DNA from: a plasmid
Reading direction: 5' to 3' (one strand)
Length of the DNA stretch: 64,000 bases
NCBI RefSeq assembly: GCF_058153355.1
Contig: NZ_JBLWLY010000002.1
Shown here: positions 3,163 to 46,713 of the stretch, in pieces
Numbering within the stretch: the stretch's first letter is position 1
Layout: every line of letters starts with the position of its first letter
Translations under genes and position numbers: made by a program
The notes under the pieces: generated by a model
Seen by the model: only the letters and a program-made list of their open reading frames with translations
Told to the model about the DNA's origin: nothing
Databases searched by the model: none

Positions 3163-5229
3163 ATGAAAGTGATCCAGTCTTTTCTTAAGCAAGTAAGTAC
3201 TAAGCCTGAATTAATTATATTAGTGCTTATGGTTATGATCATTGCTATGTTGATCATACCATTACCTACATACCTTGTTGATTTTTTAATAGGGCTTAAT
3301 ATTGTACTTGCTATTCTCGTTTTTATGGGATCATTTTATATTGAAAGAATATTGAGTTTTTCTACATTCCCTTCGGTTTTGTTGATAACGACATTATTTC
3401 GTCTCGCTTTATCAATAAGTACTAGTCGGCTAATTTTAGTTGATGCGGATGCGGGTAAAATTATTACTACATTTGGCCAGTTTGTCATTGGTGATAGTCT
3501 GGCTGTAGGTTTTGTTATTTTTTCAATAGTAACTGTTGTGCAGTTCATTGTTATAACAAAAGGATCTGAAAGGGTTGCGGAGGTAGCTGCTCGCTTTTCT
3601 CTTGACGGTATGCCGGGGAAACAAATGAGCATTGATGCGGATTTAAAGGCTGGAATTATTGATGCCGCAGGAGCTAAAGAAAGACGCAGTATTCTGGAAC
3701 GTGAGAGTCAATTGTATGGTTCATTTGATGGAGCAATGAAGTTCATTAAAGGTGATGCAATTGCTGGCATCATTATTATTTTTGTCAATTTAATAGGAGG
3801 TATTTCTGTTGGTATGAGTCAACATGGAATGTCCCTATCTGGTGCATTATCTACTTATACCATACTAACTATTGGTGACGGATTGGTCTCTCAGATTCCT
3901 GCTCTGTTAATTTCTATAAGTGCAGGATTTATCGTTACAAGAGTTAATGGTGATAGCGATAATATGGGACGTAACATAATGTCCCAGATATTTGGGAATC
4001 CTTTTGTTCTCATTGTTACATCAGCTCTTGCCTTGGCGATAGGGATGTTGCCAGGTTTTCCGTTTTTTGTTTTTTTCCTGATAGCAGTTACTTTGACGGC
4101 TTTATTCTATTATAAAAAGGTCGTAGAAAGAGAAAAAAGTCTGTCTGAGTCTGATTCTAGTGGCTATACTGGTACATTTGATATTGATAATAGCCATGAC
4201 TCATCTTTGGCAATGATAGAAAATCTGGATGCTATTAGTTCAGAAACCGTTCCTTTAATTTTATTATTTGCCGAAAATAAGATAAATGCAAATGATATGG
4301 AAGGGCTTATTGAAAGGATAAGAAGTCAGTTCTTTATTGATTATGGTGTCAGGCTTCCAACTATTTTATATAGAACAAGCAATGAGCTTAAGGTTGACGA
4401 TATTGTTTTGTTAATAAATGAGGTGCGTGCCGATAGTTTTAATATATACTTTGACAAAGTATGTATTACAGATGAAAATGGAGATATAGATGCTCTAGGT
4501 ATTCCTGTTGTTCCAACTTCATATAATGAACGTGTTATTTCTTGGGTAGACGTTTCATATACAGAAAATCTAACTAATATTGATGCTAAAGTTAAAAGCG
4601 CTCAAGATGAATTTTATTACCAGTTGTCACAAGCTTTATTAAACAACATAAATGAGATTTTTGGCATACAAGAAACAAAAAATATGTTAGATCAGTTTGA
4701 AAATCGGTATCCTGATCTTTTAAAGGAAGTCTTCCGACATGTGACTATACAGAGAATATCTGAGGTATTACAAAGATTGCTTGGAGAAAATATTTCTGTT
4801 CGCAATTTAAAACTTATTATGGAGTCTTTGGCGCTTTGGGCTCCCAGAGAAAAAGATGTCATAACATTAGTTGAACATGTCCGTGCATCACTTTCTAGGT
4901 ATATTTGTAGTAAAATAGCCGTTTCTGGTGAGATTAAAGTTGTGATGCTTTCCGGATATATTGAGGATGCAATAAGAAAAGGGATAAGGCAAACCTCTGG
5001 TGGCTCTTTCTTGAATATGGACATAGAGGTTTCGGATGAGGTAATGGAAACTTTAGCACATGCTTTGAGAGAATTGAGAAATGCAAAAAAAGATTTCGTT
5101 CTTTTGGTATCAGTAGATATACGTAGGTTTGTTAAAAGACTTATAGATAACAGATTTAAGAGTATACTCGTTATATCGTATGCTGAGATTGATGAAGCAT
5201 ATACCATTAATGTATTGAAGACTATTTAG
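3163..5229 (+). CDS. mxiA: T3SS export apparatus major subunit (SctV; InvA/MxiA)
   Basis: 688 aa; N-terminal polytopic membrane domain; FSLDGMPGKQMSIDADLKAG motif typical of the FlhA/SctV family. Confidence 0.92.
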   Translation: MKVIQSFLKQVSTKPELIILVLMVMIIAMLIIPLPTYLVDFLIGLNIVLAILVFMGSFYIERILSFSTFPSVLLITTLFRLALSISTSRLILVDADAGKIITTFGQFVIGDSLAVGFVIFSIVTVVQFIVITKGSERVAEVAARFSLDGMPGKQMSIDADLKAGIIDAAGAKERRSILERESQLYGSFDGAMKFIKGDAIAGIIIIFVNLIGGISVGMSQHGMSLSGALSTYTILTIGDGLVSQIPALLISISAGFIVTRVNGDSDNMGRNIMSQIFGNPFVLIVTSALALAIGMLPGFPFFVFFLIAVTLTALFYYKKVVEREKSLSESDSSGYTGTFDIDNSHDSSLAMIENLDAISSETVPLILLFAENKINANDMEGLIERIRSQFFIDYGVRLPTILYRTSNELKVDDIVLLINEVRADSFNIYFDKVCITDENGDIDALGIPVVPTSYNERVISWVDVSYTENLTNIDAKVKSAQDEFYYQLSQALLNNINEIFGIQETKNMLDQFENRYPDLLKEVFRHVTIQRISEVLQRLLGENISVRNLKLIMESLALWAPREKDVITLVEHVRASLSRYICSKIAVSGEIKVVMLSGYIEDAIRKGIRQTSGGSFLNMDIEVSDEVMETLAHALRELRNAKKDFVLLVSVDIRRFVKRLIDNRFKSILVISYAEIDEAYTINVLKTI

Positions 5230-42799: not shown

Positions 42800-42950
42800 T
42801 TTGTGGCTGGCCACGCCGTAAGGTGGCAGGGAACTGGTTCTGATGTGGATTTACAGGAGCCAGAAAAGCAAAAACCCCGATAATCTTCTTTAACTTTGGC
42901 GAGTGAGAAAGATTACCGGGGCCATCTAAAAACCGTATAGCCAACAATCA
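42800..42950 (-). ncRNA. copA: Expected location of the CopA antisense RNA / repA1 leader (tap) region of an IncFII replicon
   Basis: Placed by gene order between copB and repA1 from established IncFII organisation; exact ends not determined from sequence. Confidence 0.35.
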
Positions 42951-43040
42951 AGCTATGCGGGGAGTATAGTTATATGCCCGGAAAAGTTCAAGACTTCTTT
43001 CTGTGCTCACTCCTTCTGCGCATTGTAAGTGCAGGATGGT

Positions 43041-43898
43041 GTGACTAATCTTCAACAAACTTATTACCGCCAGGTAAAGAACCCGAATCCGGTGTTCACA
43101 CCCCGTGAAGGTGCCCGGACGCTTCCGTTCTGCGGGAAACTGATGGAAAAGGCGGTGGGCTTCACCTCCCGTTTTGATTTCGCCATTCATGTGGCACATG
43201 CCCGTTCGCTTGGTCTGCGTCGGCGCATGCCACCGGTACTACGTCGCCGGGCCATTGATGCGCTGCTGCAGGGGCTGTGTTTCCACTATGACCCGCTGGC
43301 CAACCGCGTTCAGTGCTCCATCACCACGCTGGCCATTGAGTGCGGACTGGCGACGGAGTCTGATGCCGGAGTACTCTCCATCACCCGAGCCACCCGTGCC
43401 CTGACCTCCCTGGCTGAGCTGGGGCTGATTACCTACCAGACGGAATATGACCCGCTTATCGGGTGCTACATTCCGACCGATATCACGTTCACACCAGCAC
43501 TGTTTGCCGCTCTCGATGTGTCTGAGGTGGCGGTGGCTTCCGCACGCCGCAGTCGTGTGGAATGGGAAAACAGACAGCGCAAGAAGCAGGGACTGGATAC
43601 CCTGGGTATGGATGAACTGATGGCGAAAGCCTGGCGTTTTGTGCGTGAGCGTTTCCGCAGTTACCAGACAGAGCTTAAGTCCCGTGGAATGAAGCGTGCC
43701 CGTGCGCGTCGTGATGCGGACAGGCAGCGTCAGGATATTGTCACCCTGGTGAAACGGCAACTGACGCGTGAAATCTCGGAAGGGCGCTTCACTGCCAGTC
43801 GTGAGGTGGTAAAACGTGAAGTGGAGCGTCGTGTGAAGGAGCGCATGATTCTGTCACGTAACCGTAATTACAGCCGGCTGGCCACAGCCTCCCCCTGA
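43041..43898 (+). CDS. repA1: IncFII replication initiator RepA1 (probable GTG start)
   Basis: ..[66 protein letters not shown].. matches RepA1 of R100/R1-type plasmids as I recall it. Confidence 0.88.
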
Positions 43899-43929: not shown

Positions 43930-44200
43930 CCGGAGGCATCCGCGCGCCTGAAGCCCGTCAGTACACAAAAAAGCAGCACCACATACAAAAAACAACCTCA
44001 CCATCCACCTTCCGGTGCATCCGGTTTCCCCTGTTTTTGATACAAAACACGTCTCACAGACGGGCAATTTTGCTTATCCACATTAAACTGCAAGGGACTT
44101 CCCCATAAGGTTACAACCGTTCATGTCATAAAGCGCCAGCCGCCAGCCTTACAGGGTGCAATGTATCTTTTAAACACCTGTTTATATCTCCTTTAAACTA
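43930..44200 (+). other. Probable oriR region of the IncFII replicon with a consensus DnaA box TTATCCACA (44074..44082)
   Basis: Perfect DnaA box immediately downstream of repA1 in AT-rich DNA. Confidence 0.5.
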
Positions 44201-44872
44201 CGTAATTACATTCATTTAAAAAGAAAGCCTATTCACTGCCTGTCCTGTGGACAGACAGATATGCACCTCCCACCGCAAGCGGCGGGCCCCGACCGAAGCC
44301 ATCTTAGTTACAACACTCAAACACAACCACCAGAAAAACCCAAGTCCAGCGCAGAACTGAAACCACAAAGCCCCTCCCTCATAACTGAAAAGCGCCGCCG
44401 CCCCGGCCCAAAGGGCCGGAACAGAGTCGCTTTTAATTATGAATGTTGTAACTAAGCATCATCATCGCTGTCAGTCTTCTGGCTGAAAGTCCTCAGTACA
44501 CGCTCGTAAGCGGCCCTCACGGCCCGCTAACGCGGAGATACGCCCCGACTTCGGGTAAACCCTCGTCGGGACCACTCCGACCGCGCACAGAAGCTCTCTC
44601 ATGGCTGAAAGCGGGTATGGTCTAGCAGGGCTGGGGATGGGTAAGGTGAAATCTATCAATCCGTACCGGCTTACGCCGGGCTTCGGCGGTTTTACTCCTG
44701 TGCCATATGCAACAACGGAGTGCCGCCTTCCATGCCGCTAACGCGGCATCAAAAAATCCCTCTTCTCCAGTGCCCCCCTCCGAACTCAGAGTGTATTTTC
44801 ATTTATTGATGAAATTTACTGTTTGCGCAATTTTCCTGTTTTAGTGTATTTTGTCATTCTGGAGGCTATAAT

Positions 44873-45184
44873 ATGTTTAATGTGATTACTCACCCGGCCG
44901 CACTGGATGAACTTCTGGAATTACCAGACAATCTGCGTGGTCGTATGACCAGACTGATTGAACGGCTGGAACAGGAAGGTAACAAAATGAAAATGCCTCA
45001 CAGCCGTGTAATTGGCGGAGGGCTTTTTGAACTGAGAGTCGGGGATAAAAATATCGCAAGGACACTGTACGCTTATGCAACGGGTAACGAAATCTATCTG
45101 CTGCATGCATTTGTGAAAAAAACGCAAAAGACACCAACGAAAGCTATTGAAATTGCCAGGATGCGTCTGAAGGAGATGAACTGA
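44873..45184 (+). CDS. Type II toxin, HigB/RelE-like (Gp49-like family)
   Basis: 103 aa; toxin-first gene order with a 1-bp overlap to an HTH antitoxin gene. Confidence 0.6.
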   Translation: MFNVITHPAALDELLELPDNLRGRMTRLIERLEQEGNKMKMPHSRVIGGGLFELRVGDKNIARTLYAYATGNEIYLLHAFVKKTQKTPTKAIEIARMRLKEMN

Positions 45185-45471
45185 TGAAAGTAAAAGGTGT
45201 TCCATTCAGCCAGGTAAAGCAAAAACTACTCAGTACTCCAGAAGCTGTCAAAGGGTATGAGGATGCTGACAAAGAACTGGAGATGGTGGAAATGTTATAC
45301 GAAATGAGAGAAAAAGCGGGATTAACAAAGTCAGCACTGGCCGAACGAATGGGGTTACGCCCGTCAGCCATCAGTCGCCTGGAAAGTAACCCTTTAGGGG
45401 CCAGCATGAAAACTTTGACAAAATATGCTCATGCCTGTGGCGCAACCATCGATATTCACGCTGTCTATTGA
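45184..45471 (+). CDS. HTH (XRE-family) antitoxin, HigA-like
   Basis: 95 aa with helix-turn-helix segment ..LTKSALAERMGLRPSAISRLE.. Confidence 0.6.
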   Translation: MKVKGVPFSQVKQKLLSTPEAVKGYEDADKELEMVEMLYEMREKAGLTKSALAERMGLRPSAISRLESNPLGASMKTLTKYAHACGATIDIHAVY

Positions 45472-45756: not shown

Positions 45757-46029
45757 TTTATCCTTGCCCCGCTGAATGAGGAAACGCTGTTCCGGGGGAT
45801 TATGCTGAACGTCTTCCGTTCACGGTACTGCTGGACGATGTGGCTGGGTGCGCTGATAACGTCGTTGTTGTTCGTCGCCGCGCACAGCCAGTATCAGAAC
45901 CTGCTGACCCTGGCAGAACTGTTCCTGGTGGGGGTGATTACATCAGCGGCCAGGATCAGAAGTGGTGGCCTGCTGCTGCCGGTATTGCTGCATATGGAAG
46001 CAACCGCGCTGGGTTTACTGTTTGGTTGA
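45757..46029 (+). pseudogene. CPBP-family (CAAX/Abi-like) membrane protease, 3' fragment
   Basis: ..EETLFRGIMLNVFRSRY..AAHSQY.. motifs; gene begins abruptly at the miniature element boundary. Confidence 0.55.
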
Positions 46030-46121: not shown

Positions 46122-46379
46122 ATGCATACCACCCGACTGAAGAAGGTTGGCGGCTCAGTTATGCTGACCGTCCCACCGGCACTGCTGAACGCGCTGTCTC
46201 TGGGTACAGATAATGAAGTTGGCATGGTCATTGATAATGGCCGGCTGATTGTTGAGCCGCACAGACGCCAGCAATATTCACTGGCTGAGCTACTGGCACA
46301 GTGTGATCCGAATGCTGAAATATCAGCTGAAGAACGAGAATGGCTGGATGCACCGGCGACTGGTCAGGAGGAAATCTGA
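46122..46379 (+). CDS. pemI: PemI/Kis antitoxin (copy A)
   Basis: 85 aa MHTTRLKKVGGSVMLTVPPALLNALSLG..; matches R100 PemI as I recall it. Confidence 0.85.
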   Translation: MHTTRLKKVGGSVMLTVPPALLNALSLGTDNEVGMVIDNGRLIVEPHRRQQYSLAELLAQCDPNAEISAEEREWLDAPATGQEEI

Positions 46380-46380
46380 C

Positions 46381-46713
46381 GTGGAAAGAGGGGAAATCTG
46401 GCTTGTCTCGCTTGATCCTACCGCAGGTCATGAGCAGCAGGGAACGCGGCCGGTGCTGATTGTCACACCGGCGGCCTTTAATCGCGTGACCCGTCTGCCT
46501 GTTGTTGTGCCCGTAACCAGCGGAGGCAATTTTGCCCGCACTGCCGGCTTTGCGGTGTCGTTGGATGGTGTTGGCATACGTACCACAGGTGTTGTGCGTT
46601 GCGATCAACCCCGGACAATTGATATGAAAGCCCGGGGCGGAAAACGACTCGAACGGGTTCCGGAGGCTATCATGAACGAAGTTCTGGGCCGCCTGTCCAC
46701 TATTCTGACTTGA
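46381..46713 (+). CDS. pemK: PemK/Kid (MazF-family) toxin (copy A, GTG start)
   Basis: 110 aa (V)ERGEIWLVSLDPTAGHEQQGTRPVLIV..; start is GTG here but ATG in copy B. Confidence 0.85.
   Translation: MERGEIWLVSLDPTAGHEQQGTRPVLIVTPAAFNRVTRLPVVVPVTSGGNFARTAGFAVSLDGVGIRTTGVVRCDQPRTIDMKARGGKRLERVPEAIMNEVLGRLSTILT

Follow-up and report, generated by a model that had tools for sequence, protein, structure and literature searches.

A conserved hairpin module downstream of an IncFII-type origin is very likely a leading-strand priming region, fused to a separate, probable toxin-antitoxin control segment

Introduction

In the complementary-strand origin of the ssDNA phage G4, three stem-loops are followed on their 3' side by a CTG, and primase begins synthesis at its T (PMC6783573). 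The origins of St-1 and alpha3 carry a mini-hairpin in their Hairpin I, GCGTTAGC, and G4 has GCGAAAGC (PMC13037366). Among plasmids, R1 has two Ter sites between its minimal origin (oriR) and the point where the leading strand starts, and replicates unidirectionally, away from the Ter sites (review, PMC10331603). The repA4 region was found by transposon mutagenesis to be needed for plasmid maintenance in the IncF plasmid pEC958 (PMC4398462).

Here, we analyzed a 417-bp region (44456-44872) of a plasmid-borne stretch of DNA of 64,000 nucleotides (contig NZ_JBLWLY010000002.1 of assembly GCF_058153355.1), which we refer to in its whole length as the window. A first-pass annotation, made from the letters alone, had presented these 417 bp as one GC-rich, structured intergenic region located between a replicon and a HigBA-like toxin-antitoxin (TA) module, and had considered that it could encode a small RNA, a protein-binding array or the promoter/operator of the TA module. 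We find it very likely that 44457-44749 is the leading-strand priming region (G site, repA4 region) of an IncFII-type replicon, and that 44750-44872 is a separate, acquired segment, presumably the control region of the TA module.

Results

Comparing the window with R100, we observed ~95% identity from the end of repA up to position 44749, where the homology ended abruptly (44749/44750), just after the hairpin ATGCCGC-TAAC-GCGGCAT. The 296-bp block to the left of this point was matched by at least 5000 PLSDB plasmids (BLAST), and most of the matches ended at the same junction. The block was present in 4111 of 5426 complete E. coli genomes, 8321 of its 8401 places being on plasmids. Since homology with R100 and several thousand plasmids ends at 44749/44750, the 417 bp are not a single unit, but consist of two pieces, i.e., a conserved repA4/G-site block (44457-44749) and a TA upstream segment (44750-44872). 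Thus, while all the features described at first pass are present, the intergenic region that was thought to hold them is split by a homology break. In some records, the block bears the PGAP/RefSeq label 'replication-associated protein RepA4'.

Beyond the junction, R100 continues with the promoter of a CPBP/Rce1-like gene, whereas the window has the TA module instead. A remnant of the CPBP/Rce1-like gene was detected in the window at 45802-46029, and the joining of the TA module replaced the promoter and the 5' part of the gene found in R100. In pBS512_211, the TA module and its upstream segment are accompanied by the right half of the conserved block only (from about 44633), and the module adjoins ospE2, away from any replicon. 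The TA segment is therefore separable from the replicon, indicating that the two were joined at 44749/44750; the junction marks where accessory genes, in this case the TA module, attach to the replicon.

Upstream of the structured region, the window contains a complete IncFII-type replicon. This comprises the CopA antisense RNA (42866-42956; Rfam RF00042, 98.6 bits), an IncFII-type RepA (43029-43898; PF02387, E = 1.8e-26) and an oriR spanning about 44070-44260 (~190 bp), with a DnaA box, TTATCCACA, at 44076-84 that is followed by the AT-rich origin; the assignment is further supported by the R100 alignment. The supposition that the region sits where IncF replicons carry auxiliary replication sequences was therefore well placed, as it lies downstream of an IncFII replicon and corresponds to the repA4/G-site region of R100.

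Two Ter-like sites were identified past the origin. The left one (terRL equivalent; 44303..44319, - strand) falls outside 44456-44872 and is the inverted partner of the right one (terRR equivalent; 44440..44456, + strand), which adjoins the left edge of the structured region. The pair forms an inverted repeat of 17 nt that is 94% complementary. The Ter core GTTGTAACTA occurs in two inverted copies, at 44305-14 (-) and 44445-54 (+), as in a Tus-Ter trap, and these are its only 2 copies in the 64 kb (0.05 expected). Read from left to right, the order is RepA, the DnaA box, both Ter sites, block A/B, the CTG and stem-loops SL1-3 (see below); this puts the G-site position past both oriR and the Ter pair, on the strand that is the leading-strand template.

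As near-identical matches filled the at least 5000 PLSDB records, sequence diversity was taken from the E. coli collection and from species-representative genomes. A 26-nt core pattern from inside block A was searched for in a single genome of each species, which yielded 43 loci, in Pantoea, Erwinia, Yersinia pestis, Serratia, Edwardsiella, Klebsiella, Enterobacter, Mixta, Izhakiella and some contaminated MAGs. The 40 non-identical copies aligned as one ordered module, composed of Ter, block A, block B, a spacer, an invariant CAG, a purine-rich spacer, SL1, SL2 and SL3. Most of these 40 relatives keep the right Ter site as ATGNATGTTGTAACTA. In 17 loci, an IncFII-type RepA is encoded in the same orientation ~570-750 bp upstream of the module; in other loci, the upstream protein is either a very divergent member of RepA's Pfam family or a protein without a Pfam match.

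Block A (44497..44537) reads ACACGCYC-GTAAGCGGCCC-loop-GGCCCGCTAAC-GCGGAG, or, in a longer reading, ends in GGCCCGCTAAC-GCGGAGATAC. It consists of an imperfect hairpin (44506-44531) that overlaps a small hairpin, CCGC-TAAC-GCGG (44524-44535), the latter reading GCGTTAGC on the - strand. Block A is invariant in the 40 sequences (Pantoea, Erwinia, Yersinia, Serratia, Klebsiella and others), a near-invariance that partly reflects retrieval by a pattern inside the block, though the flanks outside the pattern are invariant as well. Block B (44533..44579) is a composite hairpin, with an invariant outer stem, CGGAG/CTCCG, that pairs in 40/40 sequences, and a variable inner hairpin. The inner hairpin is CCCGAC...GGG-TAAA-CCC...GTCGGG in the window, and some relatives have swapped it for an unrelated, perfect one (ATTCCGGC-TAT-GCCGGAAT or CCGGTC-TTC-GACCGG). 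With a mean identity to the window of 94% for block A and 82% for block B, as compared to 64% for SL1-3, block A/B (44497-44579) appears to be the best-conserved part of the module. Some contigs carry second copies of the module elsewhere, and in these block A/B is still linked to the G site.

To the right of the CAG lie the three stem-loops, all assigned to the - strand. SL1 (44666..44679), CCGGC-TTAC-GCCGG, has the - strand loop GTAA (GCGTAAGC); its stem covaries to GCGGC...GCCGC in Erwinia and Serratia, and its - strand loop is G(N)NA in most relatives. SL2 (44685..44727) is a long hairpin with a closing stem, GGCGG/CCGCC, and an inner stem, ACTCC/GGAGT, the closing stem taking the forms GGCGCC/GGCGCC, GGCGAC/GTCGCC, GGTGCC/GGCACC and GGCGCT/AGCGCC in other copies. 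SL3 (44732..44749), ATGCCGC-TAAC-GCGGCAT, is the last conserved element before the junction; its stem is found as ATGACGC/GCGTCAT, ATGCGCC/GGCGCAT or ATGCGC/GCGCAT, and its loop varies freely.

Several observations made at first pass were reproduced in this analysis. The motif CCGCTAACGCGG indeed occurs twice, as exact copies at 44524-44535 (the small hairpin of block A) and 44735-44746 (within SL3), the inverted repeats CCCGAC/GTCGGG and CCGGC/GCCGG are located at 44544-49/44565-70 and 44666-70/44675-79, respectively, and the absence of a convincing ORF was confirmed, as only short overlapping ORFs of 62 aa (-) and of 46 and 45 aa (+) are present. The repeat itself turned out to be a matter of lineage. 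In R100, the SL3 loop is TGAT, so that the second site reads CCGCTGATGCGG, whereas in the window it is TAAC, which creates the exact 12-mer repeat. Given that the loop is TGAT in R100 and freely variable elsewhere, the exact repeat is a lineage accident, and a block whose repeat is exact in this lineage only is not an array of repeated protein sites, as had been suggested. Accordingly, of the features expected to be conserved in R100/pINV-type plasmids, the structure was retained and the exact 12-mer repeat was not.

We then folded 44457-44752 as ssDNA, and found it to be more stable than shuffled sequences on both strands, in line with the structure proposed at first pass (- strand, z = -3.2, 0/200 shuffles as stable; + strand, z = -2.9, 2/200 as stable). 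Independent folds of the - strand showed three hairpins followed by an unstructured, CTG-bearing tail in most of the 40 sequences. Since the MAFFT columns were out of register at the stem-loops, they were replaced by per-sequence hairpin extraction and a covariance-model alignment. In this alignment of 43 copies, 91.4% of the cells pair, as compared to 27-47% with slid partners, changes on both sides of a pair were found in 40 cells, as compared to 11.6 +/- 2.6 in shuffles (0/500 as high), and the covariation score was 0.150, as compared to 0.047 for shuffled and at most 0.022 for slid partners; being fitted to the model, the alignment yields pairing figures that favour structure, yet the same picture emerges from the independent folds and from the raw lists of stems. 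Thus, folds and covariation against controls both place three stem-loops on the strand of the CTG, to its 5' side. Covariation alone does not separate ssDNA structure from RNA structure. An asymmetry between G.T and A.C pairs was also considered as a strand indicator, and was set aside because it is confounded by the variable-length stem.

The predicted primase start block (44618..44631, - strand) reads CCCTGCTAGACC, with its CTG at 44628-44626. This CTG (CAG at 44626-28 on the + strand) is invariant (36/36 and 42/43 homologous copies) and, on the - strand, is set in CCCTGC(T/A)A(A/G)(G/A)CC, 3' of the three stem-loops. The spacer to its left (44580..44617) is variable in sequence and conserved in length: the end of hairpin B is 46-47 nt from the CAG in 33 of the 38 relatives scored, and 4 of the 5 outliers are wrong script picks or a deletion. 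The spacer to its right (44632..44665, - strand), between the CTG and SL1, contains the conserved TTGATAGRTTYCACC and places SL1 39-43 nt from the CAG in nearly all relatives. In the main group, SL1 and the CTG are separated by 37-42 nt, with Klebsiella-type variants alone having a hairpin ~11 nt from the CTG. These fixed distances, from block B to the CTG and from the CTG to SL1, define a hairpin-free stretch of ~87 nt with the CTG near its middle. Another CAG, at 44494-96 to the left of block A, was rejected as a start site, as it is absent in divergent relatives.

The T of the CTG lies opposite A44627, which is ~370 bp to the right of where the ~190-bp origin ends; the stop codon of the R100 RepA4 frame follows ~20 nt later. 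The primary papers on the R1/R100 G site are reportedly those of Masai & Arai 1989, Bernander et al. 1992 and Jiang et al. 1993. We take the start mapped in R1/R100 to lie inside repA4 and close to its 3' end, ~380-400 bp past oriR, and the position of A44627 fits this assumption.

A 16-nt position weight matrix (PWM), built from the plasmid start blocks only, was used to scan both strands of four whole phage genomes. In G4, alpha3, St-1 and phiK alike, the single top match was the known primase start, on the viral (template) strand: at 3992 in G4 (13.1 bits, next 7.5; annotated primer 3970-3997), at 5063 in alpha3 (15.4 bits, next 5.8), and with 15.4 bits in both St-1 and phiK (next 11.9). 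The covariance model gave a weak match at the alpha3 origin (E = 0.25), and local alignment of the whole region detected no significant similarity to the G4 or alpha3 origin with either strand; what phage and plasmid have in common is limited to the start block (10-16 nt) and the general architecture. The 12-mer reads CC-GCGTTAGC-GG on the - strand, exactly the Hairpin I mini-hairpin of St-1/alpha3, and, with the SL1 loop included, 3 copies of the motif class GCGNNAGC are present within 296 nt of the - strand (~0.14 expected). We also considered a mirror-image G site on the + strand, featuring the 9-mer CGGAGATAC common to stem-loop II of G4/alpha3. This candidate was rejected, as + strand CTGs are missing from the expected interval in several relatives, and the 9-mer match is within chance (334/1000 shuffles).

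To the right of the junction, the TA module encodes a Gp49/HigB-like toxin of the RelE/ParE family (44873-45184, + strand; PF05973, E = 1.3e-28) and an HTH_3 antitoxin (45184-45471, + strand; PF01381, E = 3.6e-12), the two genes being adjacent with a one-base overlap, as in a type II TA system. The segment upstream of them (44750..44872, + strand) is AT-rich and absent from R100. It contains direct repeats (AGTGTATTTT at 44790 and 44843; AAATTTACTGTTT/AATTTTCCTGTTT at 44812 and 44829) and a dyad, TTTCAT-N6-ATGAAA, at 44797-44814, all within 44790-44855, as well as a Shine-Dalgarno sequence, GGAGG (44861-65), 7 nt before the ATG. In a search in which 107 records covered at least 80% of the query, the segment was contiguous with the TA genes, with 99.5-99.7% identity among the matches listed (including Shigella and large E. 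coli plasmids), and the two remain linked even when the TA module is not located next to the replicon. A sigma-70 consensus scan of 44750-44872 detected no strong + strand promoter, the best -35/-10 pairs matching 7-8 of 12 positions. HTH antitoxins commonly autoregulate. Considering this, and that the segment always accompanies the TA genes, a role in their control is likely, and 44750-44872 is presumably the promoter/operator of the TA operon. The promoter/operator originally suggested for the whole region is hence plausible for this segment, which travels with the TA genes, and does not apply to 44457-44749.

Other explanations of the conserved block were weighed against a priming region. 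An RNA, whether small or cis-acting, with the hairpins as its structure, is very improbable in our assessment. The covariation of the three helices and the strong folding would fit an RNA as well, and the + strand has one terminator-like hairpin with a T-run (44674-44688), yet this T-run is missing in most relatives and no promoter-like site was found within or upstream of 44457-44749 on either strand. The Rfam scan proposed at first pass produced no family in the region: no Rfam 15 family was detected in 44200-44900 at E <= 1, the only hits being CopA and weak, overlapping pseudoknot models upstream, which, together with the lack of a predicted promoter, speaks against the small RNA once suggested for the main 295-bp block. 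Moreover, the start block matches the DNA priming sites of ssDNA phages, and the - strand loops favour G(N)NA, a feature of DNA mini-hairpins. Still harder to sustain is the view suggested by the R100 and PGAP annotations, in which repA4 is a genuine protein-coding gene with its 3' part in this region. R100 does have an open frame of 133 codons, running from the equivalent of 44261 through the hairpins, and some RefSeq records name its product 'replication-associated protein RepA4'; in the window, however, a TAA within the Ter site ends the frame after 64 aa (ORF 44261-44455). Across 48 homologous copies, the longest core frame ranges from 32 to 133 codons in differing frames, the indels are not multiples of three, and the product has no Pfam match. 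The RepA4 frame is thus not conserved, which points to cis-acting DNA rather than a protein.

We give as little credence to the idea that the whole 417 bp is a HigBA-like promoter/operator, or a protein-binding repeat array defined by CCGCTAACGCGG. Its position directly upstream of the TA operon would suit such a role, and an exact direct repeat of 12 nt was reached in only 10/2000 mononucleotide shuffles, but thousands of plasmids have 44457-44749 without this TA module, the 12-mer at the second site differs in R100 and varies freely elsewhere, and 44750-44872 alone accompanies the TA genes as an upstream segment belonging to them. A further alternative concerns block A/B, which could be a separate, phiX174-type site for PriA-dependent primosome assembly on the + strand (the lagging-strand template), beside the G site. 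PriA-type sites classically lie on the lagging-strand template just downstream of an origin, and block A/B occupies this very position. In addition, the stem of hairpin A, AGCGG/CCGCT, is preceded by GTAAGCGG on the + strand, which resembles the AAGCGG hexamer that we take to be common to n'-type sites, and block A/B is better conserved than the stem-loops of the G site (94% vs 64% mean identity to the window). Nonetheless, the apical loops of hairpin B and GCGTTAGC look like DNA mini-hairpins on the - strand, not on the +, and the fixed spacing of 46-47 nt to the CTG argues for one integrated unit. We therefore regard a PriA site as improbable, though less so than the explanations above.

Somewhat better, while still doubtful, are the chances that block A/B goes beyond the published G site and is a distinct, uncharacterised ssDNA element read by a host factor. 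Phage origins have nothing comparable in this place, 3' of the CTG on the - strand. As a structural 'bookend', block A/B may phase SSB about the point where primase starts; alternatively, it may serve for protection or loading on the part of the leading-strand template that is not made double-stranded until the replication round ends. A distinct element, if there is one, would explain the near-constancy of block A/B across replicons whose initiators are ~24% identical.

Discussion

The structured block is very likely already-known biology, i.e., the G site of IncFII/IncI-type replicons, here fused to an acquired TA control region. Based on the arrangement of the module, we propose that RepA, with DnaA, DnaB and DnaC, opens oriR, and that unwinding would spread rightward past both Ter sites, exposing the - strand, which is the leading-strand template. 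On the exposed strand, the three GC-rich stem-loops (44749-44666) would fold, leaving the invariant CTG ~40 nt 3' of them, inside a G4/alpha3-like start block. The host primase DnaG, with SSB, would then start an RNA primer opposite the T of the CTG. Because a rightward leading strand uses the - strand as its template, this primer should begin at A44627; it would run rightward (AGGGCUGGGG...), into and past SL1-3, and Pol III would extend it as the leading strand. Both priming by primase alone and the exact start nucleotide are what we infer from these comparisons. Block A/B and SL1-3 would bracket the start, phasing SSB and keeping the CTG accessible. To the left of the start, the - strand would have no partner before the return of the fork; stable hairpins would be favoured in this stretch for that reason too, and the two structured blocks may also help to stabilise it.

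Annotations of thousands of IncF, IncI and related plasmids usually skip this 250-300-bp block, or call it a hypothetical or RepA4 protein. It would be better described as a functional, non-coding part of the replicon, comprising two Ter sites and a primase start signal. As the module is common to replicons with unrelated initiators, it should serve as a good marker of the direction and start point of replication in plasmids of Enterobacterales, and it flags a conserved interface between host and plasmid (DnaG/SSB).

In its core, the module resembles the origins of G4, alpha3, St-1 and phiK, with which it has in common a template-strand CTG start in the block CTGC(A/T)AAGCC, a set of three stem-loops on the 5' side of this CTG, and mini-hairpins of the GCGNNAGC/GCGNAGC type in the loops. 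In the phages, however, Hairpin I is 3-6 nt from the CTG, whereas the nearest stem-loop of the plasmid is 37-42 nt away; a Hairpin I directly adjoining the CTG, as in the phages, is thus not found here, which sets the module apart from phage origins but not from the plasmid G site. Furthermore, the plasmid module alone has the extra, invariant hairpin block 3' of the CTG. The ssiA and ssiB signals of RSF1010 are likewise hairpin-based signals for single-strand initiation in a plasmid origin, with a mini-hairpin, yet they are 40 nt long, are paired on opposite strands and are read by the plasmid's own primase, RepB' (PMC13037366). Here, a + strand CTG is not conserved, meaning that the start block has no twin on the opposite strand, unlike in RSF1010.

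The G site/repA4 region of R1/R100 (NR1) is the homologous locus, with the same order of oriR, inverted Ter pair and leading-strand start; it differs in R100 in that the RepA4 frame is open, whereas in the window the frame is cut by the stop codon in the Ter site. The same module, with Ter, block A/B, the CTG and SL1-3, is also found in the IncI1 plasmid R64, ~530 bp downstream of the rep gene; the R64 copy has 93% identity to the window and a covariance-model score of 115 bits. Presumably, it is the published ssi of the IncI1 plasmid ColIb-P9. By contrast, the initiators of the two plasmids have only 24% identity (over 113 aa), and the stretch of origin that separates the rep gene from Ter shows no relationship. 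The DNA of the module is therefore far better conserved than the initiator encoded next to it, as would fit a signal that is read not by the initiator of the plasmid but by host proteins, namely DnaG, SSB and Tus.

A module common to different replicon families

The IncI1 plasmid R64 (locus L054, 2016-2330) carries, at 93% identity, the window's module of Ter site, hairpin block and G site, which takes in the primase-start region at 44457-44749. Across 113 aa, the initiators of the two plasmids share just 24% identity, and their origins are unrelated in sequence. The G-site module behaves as a cassette common to different replicon families.

Some contigs hold a second copy of the module, full or partial, a few kb from the first (L023, 4012-4340; L032, 3621-3950; L036, 986-1119; L045, 8124-8222), and the one in L023 retains the near-invariant hairpin block A/B (44497-44579 in the window), apparently without a Ter site. 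Hairpin A (44506-44531) was also observed alone in Escherichia coli p36C_1_p1 (L006, 1600-1650), as an isolated 40-nt copy in a different context, close to genes for a 3'-5' exonuclease and a DUF6404 protein. As its left flank is common to L036, this copy looks like a truncated remnant.

Surroundings of the module

To the left of the module, the RepA4-like ORF of the window (44261-44455, + strand) encodes just 64 aa, because a TAA within the right Ter site ends the frame. In R100, a 2-bp difference leaves 133 codons open, across the hairpins. The RepA4 frame showed no conservation across relatives.

To the right, the toxin-antitoxin (TA) module (44873-45471) is followed by the 75-aa C-terminal remnant of a CPBP-family gene (PF02517, Rce1-like; 45802-46029, + strand; compared with L001, 40609-41262) and then, as in R100, by pemI/pemK (46122-46713). 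In R100, the CPBP-family gene follows the replicon; in the window, the TA module has taken the place of its promoter and 5' part. The same TA module, with the same 120 bp upstream, occurs in Shigella boydii pBS512_211 (L050, 2880-3780), where the G site is reduced to its right half, beginning at window position ~44633. This segment, which adjoins ospE2 and IS elements away from any replicon, is what is left of a replicon-TA junction formed earlier.

Variation around the primase start block

Copies from Pantoea stewartii and Klebsiella pneumoniae (L007, at ~11090; L011; L048, 6320-6500) carry an insertion directly after the invariant CAG of the start block (44626-44628 in the window). All three insertions open with identical sequence (CTACCGTGTT...); that of the Klebsiella copy L048 is ~190 bp long and is followed by a second start block. 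The insertion may be a small element targeting the CAG site.

In two Klebsiella-type loci with IncFII(K)-like replicons (L005 and L047), which score only 23-25 bits with the covariance model of the module, block A/B is preserved, as is the CTG start block (CTG being the - strand reading of CAG), but the set of stem-loops is different. One of their hairpins, ATTACGGC-TTCA-GCCGTAAT, stands only ~11 nt from the CTG, a spacing nearer to the layout of phage origins.
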